From: Acidobacteriota bacterium
GTDB taxonomy: Bacteria > Acidobacteriota > Terriglobia > Terriglobales > SCQP01
Length of the DNA stretch: 64,000 nt
Assembly: GCA_021789895.1 (NCBI GenBank)
Contig: JAJYIU010000002.1
Location: 93,805 to 157,804, forward strand
Reading direction: 5' to 3'
Shown here: positions 22,414-61,115 of the stretch, piece after piece
How positions within the stretch are numbered: the first letter of the stretch is position 1
Layout: every line of letters begins with the position of its first letter
The notes under the pieces: generated by a model
The model's database searches: none
What the model was told of the DNA's origin: nothing
The model's input: the letters and a program-made list of their open reading frames with translations, nothing else
Translations under genes and position numbers: made by a program

Positions 22414-23292
22414 TTAAATCGTTTCCATGCTGCGATGGAGCCCAAACAGCCGCGTCAGGGCAACCAGTTCCCGGCCGCTCGACGGCAAATCCCGGCAGAC
22501 CAGGCTCAAGCGCGCCTCGCGCTTTCCCGCGATCAAACGCAATGGCAGCAGCTCTCCGCCGTCCAGATCGGCCTGGATGCGATGTCGCGGCAGCCAGCCA
22601 AAGCAAAGCCCGCTGCGCACCGCGGCGACCGCGGCCTCGATGGTGTTGACCGCGAGATAGCGTTGCGCCGCCCCGCGCGGCTGGCGGCGGCTGGAGCCTG
22701 CATCCTCGATCACTGCCAGCATGTGCTGCATCAAATCAACCCGGGTAATGTTCCGCTTGTGGGCATGCAGCGGATGATCGCGCCGGGCAACCGCAAGCAG
22801 CTCGATGGCCAGAATCGGTTGCACGAAATACTCGTTCGTTGCCAGTGCGGAAATGCATAAATGCGCATGCTGTGCGGTGAATTCGGCGTCGGCCGAAAGC
22901 AGCGTGGCTTGCCGCAGCCGCGGCTGGGTGTAGGGAAAAAGGCGGCTGAATTCCGCCAGGACCGCAAACAACCGCTCGTAGGGATAAATGCTGTCCACCG
23001 ACAGCCGGATTTCCGACATCCCGCCCGTGGCCAGCGAGCGGGCGCGCTGCTCCAGCCGGCGAAAGCCCGTTAAGTGCGGCTCGGCATCGGTCAACAGCAT
23101 GCGTCCGGCTTCGGTCAGGTGCGCTTTTCTGCCGCGCAGCTCGAACAATCGCACGCCAAGCTGCTCTTGCAGCCGCGTAATGGCATAGCTGATGGTGGAT
23201 TGCGAGCGGTGCAGTTGTTTGGCGGCGGCGGCGAAGCTGCCCAGTTGCACCACGGCGTGCAGGATTTCCCAGGCGTCGAGGGTGGAGTTCAT
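22414..23292 (-). CDS. LysR-family transcriptional regulator
   Basis: N-terminal wHTH (LHAVVQLGSFAAAAKQLHRSQSTISYAITRLQEQLGVRLFELRGRK) and a LysR substrate-binding domain. Start at the ATG at 23292 (MNSTLDAW...). Confidence 0.9.
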   Translation of the reverse strand: MNSTLDAWEILHAVVQLGSFAAAAKQLHRSQSTISYAITRLQEQLGVRLFELRGRKAHLTEAGRMLLTDAEPHLTGFRRLEQRARSLATGGMSEIRLSVDSIYPYERLFAVLAEFSRLFPYTQPRLRQATLLSADAEFTAQHAHLCISALATNEYFVQPILAIELLAVARRDHPLHAHKRNITRVDLMQHMLAVIEDAGSSRRQPRGAAQRYLAVNTIEAAVAAVRSGLCFGWLPRHRIQADLDGGELLPLRLIAGKREARLSLVCRDLPSSGRELVALTRLFGLHRSMETI

Positions 23293-23388
23293 GTCCTGAA
23301 AATATCGAATATTTCGATCAATGGCGGGTAGAAATTCGACTTTCCATGCGGGTTTCCTGCGGAATATCATGCAGCTTGCTGTCATTCG
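23251..23388. repeat. 138-bp direct repeat, left copy (lysR 5' end plus lysR/GH51 intergenic DNA)
   Basis: Aligns with 24501-24638 at a constant offset of 1250 bp. I counted 4 mismatches (23253, 23271, 23329, 23348). Confidence 0.9.
23304..23318. promoter_or_regulatory. candidate LysR-type (T-N11-A) box ATCGAATATTTCGAT
   Basis: ATC-N9-GAT imperfect dyad 12 nt upstream of the lysR ATG. Duplicated identically at 24554-24568. Confidence 0.4.
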
Positions 23389-24500: not shown

Positions 24501-24638
24501 CATGGCGTGCAGGATTTCCCGGGCGTCGAGGGTGGAGTTCATGTCCTGAAAATATCGAATATTTCGATCAATGGCGGGCAGAAATTCGACTTTCCATTCG
24601 GGTTTCCTGCGGAATATCATGCAGCTTGCTGTCATTCG
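24501..24638. repeat. 138-bp direct repeat, right copy (orphan lysR start plus GH51 upstream region)
   Basis: See the left copy. It contains an orphan minus-strand ATG with about 13 lysR-like codons (MNSTLDAREILHA) and runs up to the GH51 Shine-Dalgarno sequence. Confidence 0.9.
24554..24568. promoter_or_regulatory. candidate LysR-type (T-N11-A) box, second copy, upstream of the GH51 gene
   Basis: Identical ATCGAATATTTCGAT inside the right repeat copy, 85 nt upstream of the GH51 ATG. Confidence 0.4.
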
Positions 24639-45581: not shown

Positions 45582-45761
45582 ATGTCAATCAGCCAGGAGT
45601 TGCTGGACATACTGGTTTGCCCGGAAGACAAAGCGAAACTGAAACTGGTGGCGGACGGCTCCGGTCTGGAGTGCCAGAAATGCCGGCGGATCTATCCGAT
45701 CCGCGATGGGATACCGGTGATGCTGGTGGAAGAGGCGCGGCTGCCGGAGCAAGAAAACTGA
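45582..45761 (+). CDS. Trm112/YcaR (UPF0434) family small protein
   Basis: LLDILVCPEDKAKL ... CQKCRRIYPIRDGIPVMLVEEA. Confidence 0.8.
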   Translation: MSISQELLDILVCPEDKAKLKLVADGSGLECQKCRRIYPIRDGIPVMLVEEARLPEQEN

Positions 45762-45880
45762 AGCGGCACGGCTTTTATCGCACCAAGACTTTGGGGTTGC
45801 AAACAGCGGGGCATGCCATTTCTAATTTATCCGTCTGAAAACATACCAACCGGATCATCTCCCAAACCTAGAAATCATCT

Positions 45881-48547
45881 TTATTCATATCGCAGGGCGG
45901 TCAGCGGATCGAGCTTCGCCGCGCTGCGCGCCGGTAGCCAGACGGCCACCAGGGCGGCAACCATTAACGCCAACGTCGCCAAGGCATAGGTCCATGGGTC
46001 CTGCGGGGAAATTTCAAATAAAAGGCTGCGGGCCGCGCGCGACGCCAACCAAGCCAAGCACCAGCCGAGTAAAGCGCCCGTTCCGGTCCAAAGTAATACT
46101 TTCCTCAAAAAATCAGCCATCACTCTTCCAGGGCTCGCGCCAAGCAGCATGCGAACAGCAATATCGTGGATTGAACGTTGGACGAAATAATGCGTCACGC
46201 CAAAAATTCCCAGCATGGCCAGGCCCAAAGCCAATACGGCAAAGAGGAGCAATAATGTTGAACGAAAGCGAGGAACCGCGGCCGCGGCGGCTATCTGGGC
46301 GCGCATCAAGATCGCGGGTTCGATGGACATCCGCAGGCCGCTTGCCGCGGCCACCCCGTCCATGACGGCATCCAGTTGCGCCAACAATTCGGCGAGAGGG
46401 CGGCGAGCACGCACGATCAAGTTACCGCCAACGAATGCTTCCTGCCATATAGATTCGTAAACCAACGGCTCGGTATTTGCCAAGCCGGTCTGGCGCGTGT
46501 CTTCGACCACTCCAATCACCAGACAATCCGGATCGCGGGCGCGAGTGAAGCGGCATCGGTACCATCGCAGCCGCCGGCCGACAGGATTCCGGCCGGGAAA
46601 AAATCGCTTCGCGGCGTTACGGGTCAGCACCACGCGCATGGGCAAGGCATTCGTATCGGAGGCATTGAAAACGCGCCCGGCAAGCACCCGCGCGCCCATC
46701 ATACGGAAATAACCGGGCGATACAACGCTCAAATCCACCGCCCGGGCGAACGCAGCGCTTTCGGATTGCGCGGCGGGCGTGAGCGGCGGGTTGGAGGCCA
46801 TCGCGACCCCGGCCACGCCGGACAGCGCGCGCAAGCGCGGCAACAACTCGCGTAAAAAGGCATGAAACGCCGCCGAAGCATACCCATATTTTCGGGGAAA
46901 CGGCGGCTGCAGATCGAGGCCAACGCTGATCAAGTGCCGGCGTTGAAAGCCCAAGGGCGCATGCACCAGCTTATGGAAGCTGCGCAGGAATAAACCGGCC
47001 GTGAGCAGGAGCGACAAAGCCATCGCCATTTCAGCCATCATCAGCAGCGGTTGCAGACGAAAGCCGCGGCGGTCTCCACGCACCCTGCCCGATAATCCAC
47101 GCCAATATTCAAAGCGTTTTGCACGATGCGCCGGTAAAAAGGCGAATAGAAGCATCCACGCGATCGTAACCAACAAAGCCCAGCCGAGTTCGGGCATGGT
47201 GAACAATGCGGGATGCAGCAACTGGAAGGTGGCGACCAGGGAAGGCGGCAAAACCACCAGCAGCAATTTCAGTCCGATCCCAGCCAAGCCCAGCCCGAAA
47301 CCGATTCCGAAAAAAGCCAAAAGAAAATTTTCCGCCAGCCGTTGCCGCGCCAATCGTCCCGCACCGGCGCCCAATGCAGTCCTAATCGAAAATTCGCGCC
47401 GGCGCGTTTCGGAACGGGCCAAGAAAAGATTGGCGAGATTGGCAAAAACGATCAGCAGGACCAAGCCGGAGGCGGCAAACAATAACACTAGATAAAGCGA
47501 AATCCGGGAAAAGAAGTGATGCTGCAGCGGCTCGATAGCAATCTGCCAGCCGCGTTCCTGCGGATCGCTTCGCACCAGGCCGGCGTCCATCGTATTCAAA
47601 GCCGCTTGGAGCCGGGACGGCTTAACTCCCGGTCGCGGTAAGGCAATGGCCCAAAGGTTGTGCCGTGGGTCCGGATGCGCGGCGAGGGCATTGTACTCGA
47701 TCCAAAAATCGACTTTTTTAGCGCCAAATCGAAAGCCTGGCGGAAGCACGCCCACCACCGCCACTTCCGGAGGGAAAAAGTCCAGCACGCGAAAACGCAA
47801 GCCGGAAGATAACGGGCGGGACTGGAATTGTCGCTGCCAGAAGGAATAAGAGACGACCGCTACTAGAGCATGATGCGCTTGCGCATCGGCAGGATTCAGC
47901 AGGCGGCCGCGCCATTGCACAACCCCCAGCATTGAAAATAAATTGCCGCTGGCGCTGGCAAAGGTTGCATATCGCAGCCGGCCCGGCCGAAATTGACAGG
48001 TAACCACTTCGGGCGAAACGCCCGCAACTATGCCAACCAATAACGGCTTGGCGCCTTGTTGCCAGGCTTCGACCTCTTCCGCCGAGACCGGCTGCCGGCG
48101 TAATCCGAGCCGCGGATTCTCGTCCGTCAACCAGAGCAAGCGAGCGGCATGGGGATACGGCAGAGGGCGGAAGAATGCTTTATCTAATAGTGAAAAGATG
48201 GCGGCATTGACGCCGATTCCCAGCGCCAGGGTAAGCACCGCGACCGCGGTGAATCCCGGGCTACGGCGCAACTGGCGCAGGCCGAAGCGCAGATCCTGCG
48301 CCAGCTCGTCGAGCCAGCGCAGCCCGCGGCGATCGCGGCAGGCCTCGGCGGCGGCGTCCAGGCCACCCAGCTTGATTCGCGCCCGCCGCCGCGCTTCTTC
48401 GGGCGGCAAACCGGCGCGCTCATATTCAGCCGCGGCGAGCGCCAGATGAGTTGCCAACTCCTCCGCCAGCTCGCGCTCCCGCCGCCCGTGATAAAACAGC
48501 TCGCCGACCCGCGCCAGCGCCCGCCGAATTGACCGTCTGCTATTCAT
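45881..48547 (-). CDS. ADOP-family duplicated FtsX/MacB-type permease (copy 1)
   Basis: 888 aa with a conserved N-terminal prefix (ELAEELATHLALAAAEYERAGLPPEEARRRA...). Two MacB_PCD-plus-FtsX 4-TM modules. Ends ...KLDPLTALRYE. Confidence 0.85.
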   Translation of the reverse strand: MNSRRSIRRALARVGELFYHGRRERELAEELATHLALAAAEYERAGLPPEEARRRARIKLGGLDAAAEACRDRRGLRWLDELAQDLRFGLRQLRRSPGFTAVAVLTLALGIGVNAAIFSLLDKAFFRPLPYPHAARLLWLTDENPRLGLRRQPVSAEEVEAWQQGAKPLLVGIVAGVSPEVVTCQFRPGRLRYATFASASGNLFSMLGVVQWRGRLLNPADAQAHHALVAVVSYSFWQRQFQSRPLSSGLRFRVLDFFPPEVAVVGVLPPGFRFGAKKVDFWIEYNALAAHPDPRHNLWAIALPRPGVKPSRLQAALNTMDAGLVRSDPQERGWQIAIEPLQHHFFSRISLYLVLLFAASGLVLLIVFANLANLFLARSETRRREFSIRTALGAGAGRLARQRLAENFLLAFFGIGFGLGLAGIGLKLLLVVLPPSLVATFQLLHPALFTMPELGWALLVTIAWMLLFAFLPAHRAKRFEYWRGLSGRVRGDRRGFRLQPLLMMAEMAMALSLLLTAGLFLRSFHKLVHAPLGFQRRHLISVGLDLQPPFPRKYGYASAAFHAFLRELLPRLRALSGVAGVAMASNPPLTPAAQSESAAFARAVDLSVVSPGYFRMMGARVLAGRVFNASDTNALPMRVVLTRNAAKRFFPGRNPVGRRLRWYRCRFTRARDPDCLVIGVVEDTRQTGLANTEPLVYESIWQEAFVGGNLIVRARRPLAELLAQLDAVMDGVAAASGLRMSIEPAILMRAQIAAAAAVPRFRSTLLLLFAVLALGLAMLGIFGVTHYFVQRSIHDIAVRMLLGASPGRVMADFLRKVLLWTGTGALLGWCLAWLASRAARSLLFEISPQDPWTYALATLALMVAALVAVWLPARSAAKLDPLTALRYE
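48272..48547. repeat. conserved 5' block shared by the two ADOP genes (copy 1)
   Basis: Aligns with 51012-51287 at a constant offset of 2740. I counted 24 mismatches in 260 nt (48271-48530), while the rest of the two genes is far more diverged. Confidence 0.8.
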
Positions 48548-48617
48548 TCCCTCGCGTCTCCGACTTTACGGCGCTGCGCTTGCTATGTTTCCGCCCAGGC
48601 CCCTGCTTCGCTAACAT

Positions 48618-51287
48618 TCACTCATAACGCAACGCTTCCAACGGATCCAATTTCGCCGCCCGGCGCGCCGGCACATAGCTGGCGGCCAGGGCCACGCCGG
48701 TCAGCAGCAAGCCGGCGCCCAGATAACTCCAGAGATCACCCGGTGAAACTTGGAATAGCAGGCCGGCCAACAGCCGGCCGAACGCCCAGGCGGCGGCAAG
48801 CCCGATCAATCCGCCGACCAGCGCCAGCTTCAAGCCTCCGGCGACAATCAATCGCACCAACTGGCCATGCGTCGCGCCCAGCGCCGATCGCACGCCCAAT
48901 TCATGCCGACGCTGGGTTACGCCATACGCCAGCAAACTATAAATTCCCATCCCGGCCACGCCCAAGCCGAGCAGGCCCAGCAAGGCCGTCAGCCAGGCAT
49001 GGACCCGTTCCGCCGACAATGACGCGTCATGAGCGATTTCGCTTTCCAGCGGACGAATGACGATGGGCAAACCGTTCAGATCAGCGCCGCAGATCTTGCG
49101 CATCTCCGGCACGAAGCCGGCGGCGGGGGTTTTCGTGCGCGCCAGGAAATGCAGAAACGGCACTGGAAATTGCGCCAGCGGAACAAAATAGCCCGGAGCC
49201 GGGGGGCGCGTCAGCGTTTGACCCATCGTATTTCCCACCACACCGATGACGACGTCATTGCCTAATTTTTTTCCCAGCGGGTTGCGCCCGGGAAAGGCCT
49301 GGCGCGCCAGAGCCCGATTGATGATGCACACCCGGCGCGATCGGGCGGTATCGCCGGCGCGAAAGTCGCGCCCGCTCAGCAGCGGGATCTGCATGGTGGT
49401 GAAATAGCCGGGGCTGACGGGCTGCAAGGCCATCTCCAGCGGGTGACCGACGGGGCCATGCGCGCCAAAATTTTGGATCGCCTGGGTGATGGTCGCACCG
49501 CCGGACAGCATGGGCGGGGTGACGGCGACGGCGGCCGAGGCCACCGCCGGCCGCGCCTGCAGGCGGGCCAAGACTTCCGCGGCAAAACGGGTCCAATCGG
49601 CATGGGTTTTATATTGATTCAGCGGCAATTGAATATAGGCATCGAGCAGGCGGCGAGGATTGAAGCCCGGCCGCACGGCCAGCGTGCGCAGCAGGCTATG
49701 CAGCAGCAAGCCGGCGCTCAATAGCAGCATAAAAGACAGCGCAATTTCCGCCGTCGTCAAGGCTTGACGCATCCGGCGCGGGGCGCGGCACTCGCCGTGC
49801 CTGAGATTGGCCAGCGCCGGGCTGCCAGGGTGGTTTTGCCAGCGCCCAGCTTGCCAAGCCGGCAACAGGGCCAGCAGCAGCGCGATGGCGACCCCCGCAC
49901 CCAGCGCCGCCAGCAGCAGCGCCGGTTTGAGCGCCAATTCCGCTGCCCCCAAGCCGAGCGGCAACTCGCTGCGGGACAGCCGCAGCGCCGCCAGCGCCAA
50001 GCCCCATCCGGCGGCTGCGCCGGGCAGCGCCAGCAGCAGATTTTCAACCAGCCACTGCCGCATTAACTCGCGGCGTCCGGCGCCCAGCATGGCGCGCGTG
50101 ACAATTTCCACCCGGCGCGCGCCGACCCGCGCCGAGAGCAGGTTGGCCAGATTGACGCACGCAATTAAAAGCAAAAGCCCGGCGGCGATCAGCAGGAGCC
50201 ACAAGGGCCGGCGATAGGGGCGCGACACCAGGCCCGCCAGCGGTACGAGCGTTACCCGCACATGCTGCGCATCATAGAGCAGGGTGTGCCGGGCGCTCAG
50301 CCAGTTATGAAACCGGGTTTGGAATTCTGCCGCGGCCGCGGCCCGCGTCGCCCCCGATGCCAAGCGGCCGAGTACGTCATAGCCCCAGCCGGCGGAGCCG
50401 GGGGAAATGCCGCGATAAAGGTTCGGCAGCAGGCCGGCAATTAATCGAGGGCTAATCGGCAGCCAAATTGGGGGCGTGCCGGCAAGAAACGGGTAGCGCG
50501 CATGTGCCGGCAAGATGCCGACGATGGTGAAGCTTCCCGAGGAAACGCCGAGCGTTTCGCCCACCGCATGCGGATCGCCATGCAGCGCTTGCCGCCAAAA
50601 AGCATGGCTGATTACCACCACCGGACGCCCGGCGCTTACATCGCCGGCATCGAACAGCCGCCCCCGCGCGGCATGCGTCGCCGTCAATTGAAACAATTCG
50701 GGCGTGGACACCTCAACCAAGGAATTCCATGTATGCTGCCGATACCTTACATGCGCCGGGAAGGAAGTATAGACGGCCAGTTTGCGCAAGAGGGAGGCTG
50801 GTTTCGCCAAAATCCGCGCCAGCCCGAAATCAATCCCATGGGACACAGCGCGCCGGTCCAGCACTTCGAGGCTCATCAGCCGATGGGCCTGCGGGTAGGG
50901 CAGAGGCTCGAGCAACGTGGCCTGGAAGAGGCTGAAAACCGCCGTGGTGGCGCCCAAGCCGAGCGCCAGGGTGAGAATTGCGGCCATGGAAAATGCGCGG
51001 GCTTTGCGCATCTGGCGCAGGCCGAAGCGCAGGTCCTGCGCCAACCCGTCGAGCCAGCGCAGCCCGCGGCGGTCGCGGCAGGCCTCGGCGGCGGCGTCCA
51101 GGCCGCCCAGCTTGATCTGCGCCCGCCGCCGCGCCTCTTCGGGCGGCAAACCGGCGCGCTCATATTCAGCCGCGTGCAGCGCCAGATGAGTTGCCAGCTC
51201 GTCCGCGAGTTCGCGCTCCCGCCGACGGCGATGAAACAGCTCGCCTACGCGCACCAGCGTCCGCCGAATTTGCCTGGCGAAGTTCAT
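48618..51287 (-). CDS. ADOP-family duplicated FtsX/MacB-type permease (copy 2)
   Basis: Same architecture as copy 1, starting at MNFARQIRRTL... and ending ...KLDPLEALRYE. Lies 45 nt downstream of padR. Confidence 0.85.
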   Translation of the reverse strand: MNFARQIRRTLVRVGELFHRRRRERELADELATHLALHAAEYERAGLPPEEARRRAQIKLGGLDAAAEACRDRRGLRWLDGLAQDLRFGLRQMRKARAFSMAAILTLALGLGATTAVFSLFQATLLEPLPYPQAHRLMSLEVLDRRAVSHGIDFGLARILAKPASLLRKLAVYTSFPAHVRYRQHTWNSLVEVSTPELFQLTATHAARGRLFDAGDVSAGRPVVVISHAFWRQALHGDPHAVGETLGVSSGSFTIVGILPAHARYPFLAGTPPIWLPISPRLIAGLLPNLYRGISPGSAGWGYDVLGRLASGATRAAAAAEFQTRFHNWLSARHTLLYDAQHVRVTLVPLAGLVSRPYRRPLWLLLIAAGLLLLIACVNLANLLSARVGARRVEIVTRAMLGAGRRELMRQWLVENLLLALPGAAAGWGLALAALRLSRSELPLGLGAAELALKPALLLAALGAGVAIALLLALLPAWQAGRWQNHPGSPALANLRHGECRAPRRMRQALTTAEIALSFMLLLSAGLLLHSLLRTLAVRPGFNPRRLLDAYIQLPLNQYKTHADWTRFAAEVLARLQARPAVASAAVAVTPPMLSGGATITQAIQNFGAHGPVGHPLEMALQPVSPGYFTTMQIPLLSGRDFRAGDTARSRRVCIINRALARQAFPGRNPLGKKLGNDVVIGVVGNTMGQTLTRPPAPGYFVPLAQFPVPFLHFLARTKTPAAGFVPEMRKICGADLNGLPIVIRPLESEIAHDASLSAERVHAWLTALLGLLGLGVAGMGIYSLLAYGVTQRRHELGVRSALGATHGQLVRLIVAGGLKLALVGGLIGLAAAWAFGRLLAGLLFQVSPGDLWSYLGAGLLLTGVALAASYVPARRAAKLDPLEALRYE
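51012..51287. repeat. conserved 5' block shared by the two ADOP genes (copy 2)
   Basis: See 48272-48547. Confidence 0.8.
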
Positions 51288-51332
51288 CTCTATTCGCTTC
51301 TCCGATGCCGTCTTCCCACCTGACCACTGCAT

Positions 51333-51689
51333 TTACGGCTCTTGCGGGCGCCAGAAGCGGGCCAGCAGGTCGTGGGCGCGCTGCCAGGCGCGCGCTTCCT
51401 CCGCCAACAGCTTGCGCCCGGCGGGTGCGAGGCGGTAATACCTGGCGCGTCGGTTGTTTTCCGTGTTGCCCCACTCGCTTTGGATATAACCTTCCTGTTC
51501 CAGCTTGATCAGCGCCGGGTAGAGCGTGCCGTAGTTGACCAGCAGTTCCTGACCGCTGACCTGCTCGATGCGCCGCGCGATGCCGTAGCCATGCTGCGGC
51601 CCCATCGTCTCCAACGACTTGAGCACCATCAGCACCAGCGTTCCCGGCCAAATCTCGCGCTTGTGGTTGGGATCATTTTTTCCGGCCAT
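51333..51689 (-). CDS. PadR-family transcriptional regulator
   Basis: GTLVLMVLKSLETMGPQHGYGIARRIEQVSGQELLVNYGTLYPALIKLEQEGYIQSEW ... RRARYYRLAPAGRKLL. First gene of the padR-ADOP-ADOP operon. Confidence 0.9.
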   Translation of the reverse strand: MAGKNDPNHKREIWPGTLVLMVLKSLETMGPQHGYGIARRIEQVSGQELLVNYGTLYPALIKLEQEGYIQSEWGNTENNRRARYYRLAPAGRKLLAEEARAWQRAHDLLARFWRPQEP

Positions 51690-51705
51690 GAAGCTTCACC
51701 CTTCT

Positions 51706-51724
51706 TCTATGGGTTAAGCATAGA
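51706..51724. promoter_or_regulatory. candidate PadR operator: inverted repeat TCTATG-N7-CATAGA
   Basis: Perfect 6-bp arms, 17 nt upstream of the padR ATG. A third CTATGGG half-site is at about 51739-51745. Confidence 0.3.
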
Positions 51725-51866
51725 GCATGGCACAACTGCTATGGGAAGGCAATAGGACTCGTGGGCCGCCGCCACTACTCGTGGGTCGCCGTCAGGCGGC
51801 ACGACCGCCGCCAGAGGCATGCAGACGGTAAAGCGGGTAGTATGAATGGCATAGCCGGCGAGGACT

Positions 51867-51998
51867 ATGCAAGGCCAGATCCTGGGACATTTCAAGGTCG
51901 GGGCAAAGCTCGGCGCGGGCGGCATGGCGAGGTGTATAAGGCCGAGGATTTGAAGCTGCACCGGCAGGTGGCGCTAAAGTTTCTTCCCCGGGCGGCGG
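51867..51998 (+). pseudogene. truncated, frameshifted 5' fragment of a Hanks kinase gene (paralogous copy of the 53840 gene start)
   Basis: ATG at 51867. MQGQILGHFKVGAKLGAGGM, then one G missing near 51927 relative to 53893-53905, giving a stop at 51951. With the frame restored it reads (G)EVYKAEDLKLHRQVALKFLPRAAA. Similarity ends where the convergent phosphatase gene ends (51999). Confidence 0.6.
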
Positions 51999-53723
51999 CT
52001 AACGGGCGGCGGTGGCGGGGCCGCGGAAATGGAACTCGAGCAGGGTGCAATCATCGAGCATGGCGACGGGGCCGCGGAAGGTGTCCACGGCAGCCTGCAG
52101 GCTGGCAATCGAGCCGCCGGCGGCGAGCGCCGCCTCCAGGCGCTCTTCACCGAAAAACTCGTGGCAATCGTTTTCGACCTCGGTGACGCCGTCGGTAACC
52201 AGCAGCAGGCGGTCGCCGGGGAGGAGTTGGCGGGCGGTGGAGGCATATTCGGCGCCGGCGAAGAGTCCGAGCGGCATGCCGCCTTCGCGCAGGCGCTCGA
52301 CCGCGCCGCCGCGGGCGAGCAGCGGGGGGACGTGACCGCAGTTGACGTATTCGAGGCGGCCCTGGGCGTCCAGGCTGGCGAGAATGCCGGTGGCGTATTT
52401 TTCACCGCTGAGGCGCTGGCAGAGATACGTGTTGACAGCGGCGGCGAGCGTCGCCAGCGGGACGCCGGCGAGCAATTGGGCATAGATCATGCCCTGCAGG
52501 CTGGCGGCGAGCAGGGCGGCGGAGATGCCCTTGCCGGCGACATCAATCAGTGCGGCGTACACGGTTGAGCCGGCGGCAAGGCAGTCGAAGAAATCACCGC
52601 CGACCTGCTGGCAGGGGAGGCTGCTGCCGCGCAGCTCGATTTCCGGCAGCGCAGGCCACTCCAGCGGCAGCAGGCGGCGCTGGATTTCGGCAGCAATAGA
52701 GAGCTCCTGGCGGATGCGGCGGGCTTCGCGCTCGGCGCGCGCCAGGCGGGCGTTTTCCACCAGGTTGGCAGCCTGATTCGCAATGGCATGCAACAGGTCG
52801 GCATTGAGCGAGGAAAAGCCGCGGGCGGCGGCATGGCTATCGAGATAGAGGGCGCCCAGGGCGGCTTCGGGGCGGGCGATAAGGCTCTGCATCACTTCTT
52901 CACGCACCAGCCGCGGGCGCAGCGGGATACAGAGCACCATGCGCAGATTCTGGTCCACGATGCTTTGCCGCGCCAGCGCGCCGGAGTTGGCGGCGGTGTC
53001 GCTGAAGATGAAATCGGTAGCGGAGGCGAGCGCGTCGTGGATGGTGGAACGGGAGATGGATTGATCGCCGGCGATGGGCTCGCCGGCGCGGTTGCGGGCG
53101 GCTGCGAGGCGCAGCTCGCCGGCTTCCTGCAAAAAGACGTAGCCGCGCTCGGCGCCAGTGAGCCGGAGAGTGGTTTCGATGAGGCTGACGAGCACGTCTT
53201 CCAGCGCGCTGGGGGAATCGAGCTTGCGGGCGAGCTCGAGAAAGAGGCTGAGCTTTTGCAGATCGGCGGCGCCGCTATCCTCTTCGCCGGTGACCATCGA
53301 GAGCTGGCGCAGGAAATCGCGGGCCATGCCGGTGAGCGGGGCGAAGATCAAGCGCGGGCCGTCAGACGCGCCCAGGGCAATCTCATCGCCGGGCTTCAGT
53401 TGAGCCGTCTCCACACGGGCGCCGTTGACCCAGGTGCCGTGGCGGCTGCCCAGGTCGCGCAGCAGATAGCCGTCGCCTGAGGGAACGATTTCGGCATGAT
53501 CACGCGAGATGCGCGGGTCGAGAATCACTAGACCTTTGCCGCTCCGCCGACCGATGGTGAAGCCGGCAGGCGAGAGCTGAAACTCGTGCTGCTCTTCGCC
53601 AGCGATGTAGCGCAGGCGCGGGGCCTCAACCGGCAAGGGGGATGGAGCGAAACTGGCCATGGAACCTGCCTGGAGCCATGCTACAGCATTTGCCCGGTTG
53701 CGGGGATCAGTGTCGCCTTCCAT
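51999..53723 (-). CDS. FHA - GAF - SpoIIE/PP2C-type phosphatase fusion protein
   Basis: FHA domain (FTIGRRSGKGLVILDPRISRDHAEIVPSGDGYLLRDLGSRHGTWVNG). GAF-like middle region (LTGAERGYVFLQEAGELRL ... LGALYLDS). SpoIIE domain (GGDFFDC, LIDVAGKG, LLLVTDGVTE). The alternative ATG at 53660 gives MASFAPS.... Confidence 0.85.
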   Translation of the reverse strand: MEGDTDPRNRANAVAWLQAGSMASFAPSPLPVEAPRLRYIAGEEQHEFQLSPAGFTIGRRSGKGLVILDPRISRDHAEIVPSGDGYLLRDLGSRHGTWVNGARVETAQLKPGDEIALGASDGPRLIFAPLTGMARDFLRQLSMVTGEEDSGAADLQKLSLFLELARKLDSPSALEDVLVSLIETTLRLTGAERGYVFLQEAGELRLAAARNRAGEPIAGDQSISRSTIHDALASATDFIFSDTAANSGALARQSIVDQNLRMVLCIPLRPRLVREEVMQSLIARPEAALGALYLDSHAAARGFSSLNADLLHAIANQAANLVENARLARAEREARRIRQELSIAAEIQRRLLPLEWPALPEIELRGSSLPCQQVGGDFFDCLAAGSTVYAALIDVAGKGISAALLAASLQGMIYAQLLAGVPLATLAAAVNTYLCQRLSGEKYATGILASLDAQGRLEYVNCGHVPPLLARGGAVERLREGGMPLGLFAGAEYASTARQLLPGDRLLLVTDGVTEVENDCHEFFGEERLEAALAAGGSIASLQAAVDTFRGPVAMLDDCTLLEFHFRGPATAAR

Positions 53724-53839
53724 CCGCCATCAGCTTCGCGGTCCGCAGCGCATGAAGAGACGGGGGAATGGGGTCGGAGCTAGCCATGGCAGCAACTTGA
53801 CTGAAAAACGGGTAGTATGAACATCATCCGGCAAGGTCT

Positions 53840-56689
53840 ATGCAACCCGAAATCATGGGCCATTTCAGTGTGCGGGAAAAGCTCGGTGCGGGCGGCATGG
53901 GCGAGGTGTATAAGGCCGAGGATTTGAAGCTGCACCGGTACGTGGCGCTGAAATTCCTGCCGCGAGGAGCGGCGGGCGGGGCGGTGGAGCGATTCACGCG
54001 CGAGGCGCGAGCCATTGCCGGATTGAATCATCCTAACATCTGCACTCTCTACGAGTTCGCAGATGAAGCCGGCCAGCCGTTCCTGGTAATGGAGCTGCTT
54101 GAAGGCGAGACGTTGCGGGAGCGGCTGCTGCGCAAGCCTCTGCCGGGGCTGAACCTGCTGCTGGAGTGGGCGATCCAGATTGCCGACGCCCTGGAGGCGG
54201 CGCACCGGCAGGGCATCGTGCATCGCGATTTGAAGCCGGCCAACCTGTTCATCACCCGGCACCAGCAGGCGAAGATTCTCGATTTCGGGCTGGCGCGGCT
54301 GCAGGCCGGCGGCGAGACTGGACTGGACGAAGAAACGGCGAGCCTTACGGCGCCGCAACTGACTTCGCCGGGCACAACCCTGGGAACGATCGCCTATATG
54401 TCACCCGAGCAGGCGCGAGGCGAGGAAGTTACGGCGCAGAGCGACCTGTTTTCGTTCGGCGTGGTGTTGTATGAAGCGGTCACCGGGCATCCGTGCTTTC
54501 AGGCAAAAAGCACGGCGGAAACCTTCAGCCGCATATTGAACCTGCAGCCCGCTCCGCCAACGCGGCTGCGGCCGGAGATGCCGGCCGAACTGGAACGGAT
54601 CATTCTGCGGGCGCTGGAAAAAGACCCCGAGCTGCGTTATCAGCACGCCAGCGAGCTGCGGGCGGAGCTGAAGCGCTGCCAGCGCGACCTGCTGGCGGCA
54701 AATGCGGCGGCAACGGCAGGCGGCAATCCGGTCATTGCCGCCGTCGGCAGAATGGCAGACAGCCCGGAAAACAGCAGGACCGGCGCCACTCGTTTCGATA
54801 CACCGGCAGCCGAAGCGAGCACCGGCAGCGGCGCCGCATCCGCTGCCACAATGGCGGCAAGCGCAGACAAGCCAACTGCGGTTTCCGACAGCCAGATCAT
54901 CTCGGCGCTGCTGAGCCGACACCGCCGCGGGCTGCTATGGAGCGGGGCCGGCGCGATCACGATTTTGGCAGCGTTGGCGGGCTGGTATTCCCTGGCGAGC
55001 TCGCGTTCACGAGAACTGGCGACCGTAGTGAATGCCTGGCGCAACGCGCAGGTGATCGAACTGACGCATTCGGGGTTGGTGGCGGCCCCGGTGGCGATCT
55101 CACCCGACGGCAATTACGTTGCCTACGTGCGGAACAGCCCGCAAGGAGAGAGCCTGTGGATCCGGCAGGTGCTGGCCAGCAGCGGTTCGCAAATCGTGCC
55201 GCCGCTCTCGAGCCCATCCGCCGTATTCCGCTATACCGGACTGAGCTTCACTCCCGACAACAGCTACGTGGATTACACCGCCGGAAGCCTGATTCATCCG
55301 AACCTGTACCAAGTCCCGGTGCTGGGAGGAACGCCGGTGGAGCTGGCAAAAGACGTGGACAGCGGGCCGGCATTTTCCCCGGACGGACGGAAAATGGCGT
55401 TCGTGCGCTGTCAACCTTCCGGATACCAAGCCCAAGTTGTTGTGGCGGCAGCGGACGGTTCGCAAGCCCGAATGCTAGCGCAGAGCCAAGGGCCTGATTT
55501 CAGCTTTACCTGTTCCGCCTTCTCCGATTTAGCCCAGCCCGCCTGGTCCCATAACGGACGTTGGATTGCGGTAATCGCCGTCTCCCAGCGGCAAGTCTTT
55601 TCCCAGCAGATCGCAGTCATCTCAACCCGCACCGGCGCAATCAAACTTCTCCCGCCAACGCTTGGATTTGCGCAAGGCCTGCAATGGCTGGCCAAGGATA
55701 ACGGGCTAATGGTGATCGGCGGCAGACAGAACTTAGTTTTGGCAGAAAACCACGTCCTGCTGGTTCCCTATCCCCATGGCGCGATGGAAGTGCTCACGCA
55801 CGGCCTGGGGCCGTTCAATAGTTTGAGCCTGAGCGCCGATGGCAAGACCCTGGCCAGCCAGAAAGAAACCGACTACGCCTCGATCTGGTTGCAGCGGCCG
55901 GGCCAGGCGGCGCAGCCGATTGTGGCTCCCGCCAACAATTATCAAGGGACCTCGCTGGCTTGGGCGCCGCAGCGCAGGATTGCCTATATGGCCGAGAACG
56001 GCAACGGGCAAAACGCCGTTTTCGAAGTGGACCCCGAACATCCCGGCCCACCTCAGCAAACTTCCGACAGCGGCAACATTGCCCAGCTTGCAGTCAGCTC
56101 CCGCGGCCAGATCGCCTACAATCAGTTGCGCGGCGGGCAACCCTACCTGATCACCCAAGGCGGCCAGCAGCGGCACGGCATACCCTTGCTGGCGGGAGGA
56201 TTTCCCAGTTTTACCCCGGACGGAAACTCGATCGTGTTCATCCAACTCACGCCGCAGCAGGAACTGGCGATGATCCCCGCCCAAGGCGGCAGGGCGCGAG
56301 TATTGGCGCCATATTTCGCCGGTGTGCTATTTCCGCCCGCGCTCTCGCCGGACGGGCGGCAGATCCTGTTTGAAACGCACGATCCTAAGACGGGCAAGAT
56401 GGCGGCCGGGATCTTTCCTCTGGCCCAGCCGAAACAGATCGCATATTTGCCGATCGAAAAACAAATGCAATGGCTGCCCGATGGGCGGGGGCTGAGCTAT
56501 GTGAAAACCGTGAACGGGGTGGACAACATTTGGGCGGCGGCGTGGCGGGGCAAGCCACGTGCCATCACGCATTTTCGAAGCCAAATGATCTGGTCGTACG
56601 CTTGGTCGCGCGGCGGCCGGCTAGCGATCGCGCGGAACGAGGCGCACGGCAGCGTGGTGCTGCTGAATGCGACGAACACCAGATATTAA
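53840..56689 (+). CDS. Hanks-type Ser/Thr kinase - TM - TolB-like (PD40) beta-propeller sensor protein
   Basis: Kinase motifs: GAGGMGEVY, VALKFL, HRDLKPANLFI, DFGLARL, YMSPEQ. TM helix (LLWSGAGAITILAALAGWY). PD40-like blades (ISPDGNYVAY, FSPDGRKMAF, SHNGRWIAV, LSADGKTLA, FTPDGNSIVF, LSPDGRQILF, WLPDGRGLSY). Paralogue of 32649..35453. Confidence 0.9.
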   Translation: MQPEIMGHFSVREKLGAGGMGEVYKAEDLKLHRYVALKFLPRGAAGGAVERFTREARAIAGLNHPNICTLYEFADEAGQPFLVMELLEGETLRERLLRKPLPGLNLLLEWAIQIADALEAAHRQGIVHRDLKPANLFITRHQQAKILDFGLARLQAGGETGLDEETASLTAPQLTSPGTTLGTIAYMSPEQARGEEVTAQSDLFSFGVVLYEAVTGHPCFQAKSTAETFSRILNLQPAPPTRLRPEMPAELERIILRALEKDPELRYQHASELRAELKRCQRDLLAANAAATAGGNPVIAAVGRMADSPENSRTGATRFDTPAAEASTGSGAASAATMAASADKPTAVSDSQIISALLSRHRRGLLWSGAGAITILAALAGWYSLASSRSRELATVVNAWRNAQVIELTHSGLVAAPVAISPDGNYVAYVRNSPQGESLWIRQVLASSGSQIVPPLSSPSAVFRYTGLSFTPDNSYVDYTAGSLIHPNLYQVPVLGGTPVELAKDVDSGPAFSPDGRKMAFVRCQPSGYQAQVVVAAADGSQARMLAQSQGPDFSFTCSAFSDLAQPAWSHNGRWIAVIAVSQRQVFSQQIAVISTRTGAIKLLPPTLGFAQGLQWLAKDNGLMVIGGRQNLVLAENHVLLVPYPHGAMEVLTHGLGPFNSLSLSADGKTLASQKETDYASIWLQRPGQAAQPIVAPANNYQGTSLAWAPQRRIAYMAENGNGQNAVFEVDPEHPGPPQQTSDSGNIAQLAVSSRGQIAYNQLRGGQPYLITQGGQQRHGIPLLAGGFPSFTPDGNSIVFIQLTPQQELAMIPAQGGRARVLAPYFAGVLFPPALSPDGRQILFETHDPKTGKMAAGIFPLAQPKQIAYLPIEKQMQWLPDGRGLSYVKTVNGVDNIWAAAWRGKPRAITHFRSQMIWSYAWSRGGRLAIARNEAHGSVVLLNATNTRY

Positions 56690-56718
56690 ACGCCGGGAGC
56701 TTTAGCCGGCGCCAGCTT

Positions 56719-56751
56719 AATAAAAACGGGACCGGAGGGGATCCGGTCCCG
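56719..56751 (-). terminator. intrinsic terminator downstream of rpoC (possibly bidirectional)
   Basis: A 10-bp perfect stem (CGGGACCGGA at 56727-56736 with TCCGGTCCCG at 56742-56751) and a GGGGA loop. On the minus strand it is followed by UUUUUAUU (56726-56719). It sits 25 nt after the rpoC stop. Confidence 0.65.
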
Positions 56752-56775: not shown

Positions 56776-60984
<4,209 letters not shown>

Positions 60985-61115
60985 GATGCCTCCGAAGTAA
61001 CCCACGGCCGGCCCCGCCAGCGGGAGCGGCCGCTCGAAGCCCTCCCGCCGGGCGGGAGAGCGTACGCGCCGGTCCGATGCGGCGGGCCGGCAGAACCCAG
61101 GCAACGCCGGCGGGC

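Follow-up and report, generated by a model that had tools for sequence, protein, structure and literature searches.

In the stretch of DNA analysed here (the window, 64,000 nucleotides (nt) from the contig JAJYIU010000002.1), two direct repeats of 192 and 189 nt bracket ~1.8 kb that carries a phosphatase gene with FHA, GAF and SpoIIE domains. The right-hand copy is the upstream region and 5' end of an intact Hanks-type serine/threonine kinase gene, K2, and the left-hand copy is, to judge from its sequence, a dead stub that holds the 5' end of another Hanks-type kinase gene, K1, and is presumably now without function. The host genome is a 3.75-Mb, 79-contig draft from a soil acidobacterium of the Terriglobia. 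The initial annotation of this DNA had seen in the left element a copy of the 5' end of a kinase gene together with its promoter-proximal region, frameshifted and truncated and closest to the adjacent intact kinase, and that description is borne out. It had also called the duplication recent, a view that is not sustained by the divergence of the two copies. The reading favoured here, to which about an even chance is given, is that the stub is the relic of a once full-length paralogous kinase that was truncated by deletion. What is seen at the locus is a rearrangement scar of an ordinary kind, older than it looks, in which the conversion patch is the instructive part.

The direct repeat on both sides of the reverse-oriented phosphatase gene was recovered by blastn, by MAFFT alignment and by a repeat search, with positions 51824-52015 matching 53799-53987 at 80% identity over 193 nt in gapped alignment, and with an ungapped core (51824-51999 against 53799-53973) that is 81% identical over 177 nt; overall identity between the copies is 80-84%. 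Each copy comprises ~43 nt of non-coding upstream sequence, a start codon (51867 and 53840, as first reported) and ~47 kinase codons, and the core holds a 39-nt perfect run. The shared upstream motif of the initial annotation is the 13-mer CGGGTAGTATGAA, present at 51834-51846 and 53809-53821 and with no third occurrence in the 3.75-Mb genome even when one mismatch is allowed. The region of the 13-mer contains a -10-like TAGTAT hexamer, 24 nt before the ATG of the stub, and nowhere is the non-coding sequence of the repeat better conserved than in the -10-like 13-mer and around the ATG. A promoter scan of the upstream region returned no match to a canonical sigma-70 promoter, and a promoter role for this part of the repeat is at most putative.

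Comparison with other kinases sets the two copies apart. The other kinase paralogues in the genome match the glycine-loop (Gly-loop) tract only (57-71% overall) and have no match to the upstream sequence, so that the pair is far closer than any of them, as had been claimed; three other close paralogues align with the stub only across ~80 nt of that tract. Among 40 related genomes, kinases again match the stub only at the Gly-loop tract (70-84%) and never in the upstream part, and the closest K2 orthologues, which belong to another genus, have upstream sequence unrelated to the repeat. Because the 13-mer is unique and because paralogues and relatives share the Gly-loop tract only, the two copies are each other's nearest relatives by descent and not carriers of a common motif. 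A widespread regulatory motif was rejected on the confinement of the 13-mer to the two copies, the restriction of matches in relatives to the Gly-loop tract and the unrelated upstream sequence of the closest orthologues; a DNA duplication associated with inversion was also rejected, since it would yield inverted repeats and these are direct. As a separate observation, the tract from the Gly-loop to the VAxK motif of PD40 kinases (51901-52001, compared with the 40 related genomes) is conserved at the DNA level at 70-84%, with short cores at 89-96%. Being conserved in this way across family and order, the tract offers kinase paralogues a ready site for homeologous recombination.

Codons 1-47 of the stub encode MQGQILGHFKVGAKLGAGGM(G)EVYKAEDLKLHRQVALKFLPRAAANG. 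The loss of one G at 51926-51927 leaves the left copy with a 28-amino acid (aa) frame (MQGQ...RPRI) ending in a TGA at 51951-51953, and both the missing base and the stop had been correctly located at the outset. With the frameshift allowed for, the stub reads LGAGGM(G)EVYKAED...VALKFLP, in which the Gly-rich loop GxGxxG and the VAxK lysine strand are recognisable, and its N-terminus (FKVGAKLGAGGMGEVYKAED...VALKFLP) is still plausible as a kinase beta1-beta3 region. The disabling lesions are the 1-nt deletion with its premature stop and the truncation, and no kinase sequence was found in the stub beyond ~codon 47-50 (~52015). The stub points toward the convergent phosphatase gene, and its right-hand end lies near the stop codon of that gene (51999-52001). 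The initial annotation had placed the end of the similarity there, and rightly so; the end can be positioned only to 51995-52027, because the sequence is GC-rich and of low complexity and gives alternative alignments, and the alignment at the junction is not significant (shuffle P 0.06). The gapped kinase alignment extends across the phosphatase stop codon, and the C-terminus of the phosphatase (...GPATAAR) is 4-5 residues longer than those of its paralogue at C73, elsewhere in the genome, and of its orthologue in G005. It may be suggested, though only suggested, that the junction clipped the native phosphatase stop and that an antisense TAG within the stub now serves as the end of the gene.

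The age of the repeat is best judged from the uneven way in which its copies differ. An identity of about 88% was first given for the coding part, and the first 35 codons are indeed ~87% identical, but that high identity comes almost wholly from a tract of ~50 nt. Codons 1-13 of the stub and K2 are 72% identical in nucleotide sequence and agree at 9/13 third positions, codons 34-42 are 70% identical and agree at 2/9, and codons 14-33 are identical at 58/59 nt and agree at 19/20 third positions; the central 50 nt (51915-51964) are 98% identical, with no difference except the missing G. The segment LKFLPR (codons 37-42) is written CTA AAG TTT CTT CCC CGG in the stub and CTG AAA TTC CTG CCG CGA in K2, so that all six third positions and no others differ, a run of six consecutive synonymous differences. 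Three of these changes (CTA, CTT and CCC) are derived in the stub lineage by a reading of outgroup codons, and all three are synonymous. In the flanks (codons 1-13 and 34-47) the Nei-Gojobori method (NG86) gives a proportion of synonymous differences (pS) of 0.54, a synonymous divergence (dS) of 0.96 and a nonsynonymous divergence (dN) of 0.25, with dN/dS 0.26, against a dS of 0.08 in the central tract. The flank values equal those between the phosphatase and its C73 paralogue (pS 0.54, dS 0.96); for the phosphatase against its orthologue from another genus, pS is 0.55 and dS ~1.0.

The agreement at 19/20 third positions in the central tract is not due to codon bias or protein constraint, because other kinase pairs agree there at only 9-15/20. 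In a GENECONV-style permutation test, which used the sites that vary among eight members of the family, the stub and K2 share a run of 23 agreeing polymorphic sites (51915-51964) with P 0.002-0.004, while none of 27 other kinase pairs reaches P < 0.09. The mosaic (permutation P ~0.003) points to old homologues that carry a recent patch laid down by gene conversion or by crossover.

One plausible history, and the one favoured here, begins with a full-length K1 that would have been convergent with the phosphatase gene on one side and divergent from padR on the other. K1 and K2 would be old homologues derived from a DNA-level duplication that included the ~43 nt upstream, and they would have diverged under purifying selection until their synonymous sites were nearly saturated. 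A later deletion would have removed K1 from ~codon 47-50 to its end, reaching as far as the phosphatase 3' end and perhaps a few codons inside it, with selection keeping the phosphatase gene intact despite the deletion. Short-patch gene conversion between copies 2 kb apart would then have homogenised ~50 nt around the glycine loop, and the loss of one G inside the homogenised tract would have been the final step. We infer both the former full length of K1 and the order of these events. The relic history accounts for divergence shaped by selection, because the LKFLPR changes of the stub lineage are synonymous and its N-terminus is still kinase-like, and homogenisation of paralogues does occur in the region, since the tandem ADOP permease genes of the same locus show a 324-nt, 87% identical 5' block.

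Several points weigh against this history. It requires four separate events, and the end of its deletion coincides with the phosphatase stop codon, which insertion of a one-gene cassette explains at no cost. A second repeat-insert-repeat structure in the window (23251-23388 / 24501-24638) hints at a target-duplicating insertion mechanism. A full-length K1 was found in no relative or metagenome contig, the nearest K2 homologues being 49-55% identical and in unrelated contexts. The codon-position signal rests on ~25 differences (24 counted), and a stub dead from birth, for which ~36% synonymous differences are predicted against 46% observed, is not rejected (binomial P ~0.2).

The movements of the phosphatase gene bear on every account of the locus. 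The encoded protein has, in order, the Pfam domains FHA (56-118, 3.1e-18), GAF (174-324) and SpoIIE (387-565, 6.5e-41). Its start is almost certainly the Met at 53660, giving 553 aa, because homology with the C73 paralogue begins there and because the database entry P0122 is 553 aa long; the open frame reaches 21 codons farther upstream (53661-53723). The nearest relative in the genome, the C73 copy (C73:47359-48999, 72% aa identity), lies divergent from a PD40 kinase that is only 31% identical to K2 (C73:47359-50073; L024 4354-8853), with no kinase-like fragment found 3' of it, and with the G005 orthologue (63-66% identical) as reference the two phosphatases are sisters. Because the phosphatases are sisters at 72% and the adjoining kinases share only 31%, the phosphatase gene has moved independently of the neighbouring kinases. 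On the same figures, and with intergenic regions that cannot be aligned, duplication of a whole phosphatase-kinase module from C73 was rejected. Within the family, phosphatase and kinase genes lie side by side repeatedly and in three orientations; among the cases compared they are co-directional in G002, in G013 and in contig L034 and divergent here and at C73. The closest phosphatase homologues, at 78% (P0123, from a soil metagenome) and 66% (G005), adjoin no kinase, and the nearest three (78%, 72%, 66%) occupy three different contexts. The earlier proposal, that of a signalling gene captured beside a kinase which it may serve, is thus upheld in part, by independent relocation and recurrent adjacency. 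The other mechanism then proposed, insertion or duplication that recurs in this genome, may also be at work, though the locus was found in no relative.

An insertion of the phosphatase gene with long target duplication would produce the same arrangement and is the main rival explanation, possible though less probable. Such insertions form a known class whose mechanism is unexplained (Nobusato et al., 2000; Furuta et al., 2010, PMC2853133), and in the cases described in PMC2853133 the genes are those of restriction-modification systems, the repeats are 90% identical or more, and an empty site can be demonstrated in a sister genome. Here a phosphatase cassette (~52016-53798, with ~138 nt of its own upstream sequence) would have entered the kinase after ~codon 47-50 and doubled a target of ~190 nt (-43 to +149), so that the left copy would have been dead from birth and the kinase intact throughout. 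The topology fits, in that a direct repeat, a single gene with its upstream region and a direct repeat follow one another without a mobility gene; the repeat length falls inside the 46-423 bp range of the reported cases (PMC2853133), the phosphatase has evidently relocated independently of kinases, and the window contains a second such structure, with a 138-bp repeat. Insertion accounts for a tidy insert of one gene and for an end that falls at its stop codon, the 39-nt perfect run in the core suffices for homologous recombination, and the proportion of synonymous to nonsynonymous differences predicted for a copy dead from birth is not rejected. What speaks against insertion is chiefly the state of the copies, which are 80% identical where the reported repeats are 90-100% identical and which have flank synonymous sites near saturation. 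A neutral old stub should moreover decay evenly, and instead there are 0-1 substitutions in the central 59 nt and the polarised LKFLPR changes are all synonymous. In its plain version insertion would still need later gene conversion for the mosaic; a Campbell-type variant, in which a circularised homeologous fragment of phosphatase plus kinase 5' end recombined in the conserved Gly-loop tract, would also explain diverged, selection-shaped flanks around a near-identical core. The empty site that defines the class, an uninterrupted single-copy target that aligns with both repeats, was met in none of the genomes and contigs compared, the only other genome of the genus (G001) being without the whole 10.9-kb block in which the locus lies.

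It is improbable that the arrangement has been retained for a function, whether because the promoter copy of the stub drives antisense transcription over the phosphatase gene, which would tie phosphatase repression to the kinase promoter, or because the repeats let the phosphatase cassette excise or amplify. The conservation of the -10-like 13-mer and the ATG context, the direction of the stub into the phosphatase gene, and a 39-nt perfect run that has been kept and apparently refreshed by recombination are all in keeping with such a role. Set against them are the failure to predict a canonical promoter or to match an RNA family, the weakness of 13 nt kept in two copies as evidence, and the presence of the arrangement in no relative, hence no sign of selection for it. 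As for the repeats themselves, that they serve as a recombination cassette, a crossover in the 39-50-nt core excising or amplifying the phosphatase gene, is equally doubtful; the same crossover would return the kinase to the padR-side control region, in a frame that depends on the side of the missing G on which exchange takes place.

It is very unlikely that the stub is an artefact, either a mis-join in a draft and probably metagenome-derived assembly or, for the missing G, a base-calling error. The genome is a 79-contig draft, and the near-identical 50-nt tract could confuse a small-k assembly graph. Past the shared tract, however, the stub has ~30-50 nt of its own kinase-like sequence, unlike K2, before the phosphatase 3' end is reached, so that a mis-join could arise only with another shared k-mer at that point. 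The assembly contains no orphan kinase body lacking an N-terminus, and restoring the G would not rescue a gene that is truncated anyway.

The features of the locus are collected in Table 1. K2 ends in a PD40/TolB-like beta-propeller, and its HRDLKPAN and DFG motifs are visible in translation. The block in the last row lies between a small gene and the rpoC terminator, and is regarded as lineage-specific because in G001 the small gene runs straight into that terminator: the genes ppiD-asd-ask and the small gene there abut the 3' end of rpoC. This small open reading frame (45582-45761; 59 aa, MSISQELLDILVCPEDKA...), which resembles Trm112/UPF0434 by eye, stands between the block and the aspartate kinase gene, and its conservation extends to G001.

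Table 1. Features of the kinase-phosphatase locus and its surroundings (window coordinates)
Feature	Position	Strand	Remarks
ADOP-type MacB/FtsX permease gene, left-hand of tandem pair	45881-48547	-	Pfam MacB_PCD/FtsX
ADOP-type MacB/FtsX permease gene, right-hand of tandem pair	48618-51332	-	Pfam MacB_PCD/FtsX
padR regulator gene	51333-51689	-	Pfam PadR 3.6e-19; divergent from kinase stub
padR-ADOP1-ADOP2 permease operon, padR first	45881-51689	-	
Spacer between padR and kinase stub, 177 nt	51690-51866		
Left copy, non-coding upstream part	51824-51866	+	34/41 identical to 53799-53839, with indels
Kinase stub (K1 relic, favoured reading)	51867-~52015	+	Start codon 51867; right-hand end ambiguous, 51995-52027
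Homogenised tract, left copy	51915-51964	+	Partner 53888-53938 in K2
FHA-GAF-SpoIIE (PP2C-type) phosphatase gene	51999-53660	-	553 aa; open frame to 53723
Spacer between phosphatase gene and K2, 177 nt	53661-53839		
Right copy, non-coding upstream part	53799-53839	+	13-mer at 53809-53821
Intact Hanks-type Ser/Thr kinase K2	53840-56689	+	949 aa; Pfam Pkinase 1.8e-47, PD40 1.2e-16
rpoC, convergent with K2	56776-61104	-	
Lineage-specific ~10.9-kb block: ADOP2, ADOP1, padR, kinase stub, phosphatase, kinase	~45770-56720		Absent from same-genus G001

Scans of the block for tRNA genes, Rfam families, mobility genes (Pfam) and anomalies of GC content found none, a terminator scan at the locus gave nothing informative, and Pfam identified only PadR, MacB/FtsX, FHA-GAF-SpoIIE and Pkinase-PD40 among the block proteins. 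The padR gene has a paralogue at C76 (88% aa identity), with DNA homology that stops 67 nt upstream of padR, at 51756. The ADOP genes are 87% identical to each other over their 5' ~324 nt (48208-48530, 50948-51270) and 85% identical there to an ADOP gene at C76 (C76:177628-177967), and the proteins are diverged outside this block (dS ~1.3); the block may reflect gene conversion or a strongly constrained N-terminus. With paralogues elsewhere in the genome for padR (C76), ADOP (C76) and the phosphatase (C73), the whole looks like a patchwork. A recurrent native arrangement of padR divergent from a kinase was looked for and not found, the C76 padR following an MFS transporter gene and only the padR of the window, of five homologues, lying within 5 kb of a kinase. 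Tandem kinase arrays, which like the patchwork speak for the relic history, are present in this genome (C7) and in G002. In G005 it is a phosphoenolpyruvate carboxylase gene that adjoins rpoC, and the nearest K2 homologues (49-55% identical) have a decarboxylase gene as neighbour or lie at the end of a contig. No match to the locus came from exact-pattern scans of collections of genomes and metagenomes, and the collections searched held no genome or contig closer than 49-55% for the kinase or 78% for the phosphatase. The other direct repeat of the window, that of the lysR/TA structure, lies 28 kb away; its copies (23251-23388 and 24501-24638) are 138 nt long, 97% identical and 1250 nt apart, with a short insert, and it looks far younger than the kinase repeat.

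Some consequences for annotation are immediate. The stub should be entered as a kinase pseudogene fragment and not as a small open reading frame, and the start of the phosphatase should be set at 53660. More generally, high identity over a short stretch of conserved motif cannot date a duplication, and here a 50-nt conversion patch masks divergence that is nearly saturated. The locus illustrates the reshuffling of signalling genes in Terriglobia, in which an FHA-PP2C phosphatase has been put beside PD40 kinases several times and in varied orientations, within a block put together from paralogous pieces and missing in the sister species. If insertion with target duplication should prove true, the process would extend beyond restriction-modification genes, with two examples within 64 kb; if the cassette reading should, the locus, together with the 138-bp repeat structure, would be an example from a second phylum of the target-duplication life cycle, with cargo other than restriction-modification genes.

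In PstP/PknB-type modules and among phosphatases of the RsbU/SpoIIE family, as here, an FHA-bearing (phosphothreonine-binding) SpoIIE/PP2C phosphatase is encoded beside a serine/threonine kinase. As with pairs of FHA-PP2C phosphatases and Hanks kinases, the linkage recurs in relatives, but its orientation varies and the closest homologues (78% and 66%) lack an adjoining kinase. The resemblance to insertions with long target duplication lies in direct repeats far longer than the target duplications of transposons (>30 bp), in an insert of less than 20 kb without integrase or transposase, and in a repeat that is unique in the genome; the differences are that the cargo is a phosphatase gene, that the repeats are mosaic and 80% identical, and that the genomes compared hold no empty site. 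A likeness to the favoured history is offered by gene relics and short-patch conversion between bacterial paralogues, where a truncated, frameshifted 5' remnant adjoins an intact homologue and a short tract, detected by run-length permutation, is far more similar than its flanks, as in the neighbouring ADOP genes, which are similar in this respect. The locus departs from such cases in that the partner is a dead stub of ~190 nt rather than a full paralogue, and in that this stub still has its start codon and the region upstream, and lies directly against the stop codon of a signalling gene that converges on it.

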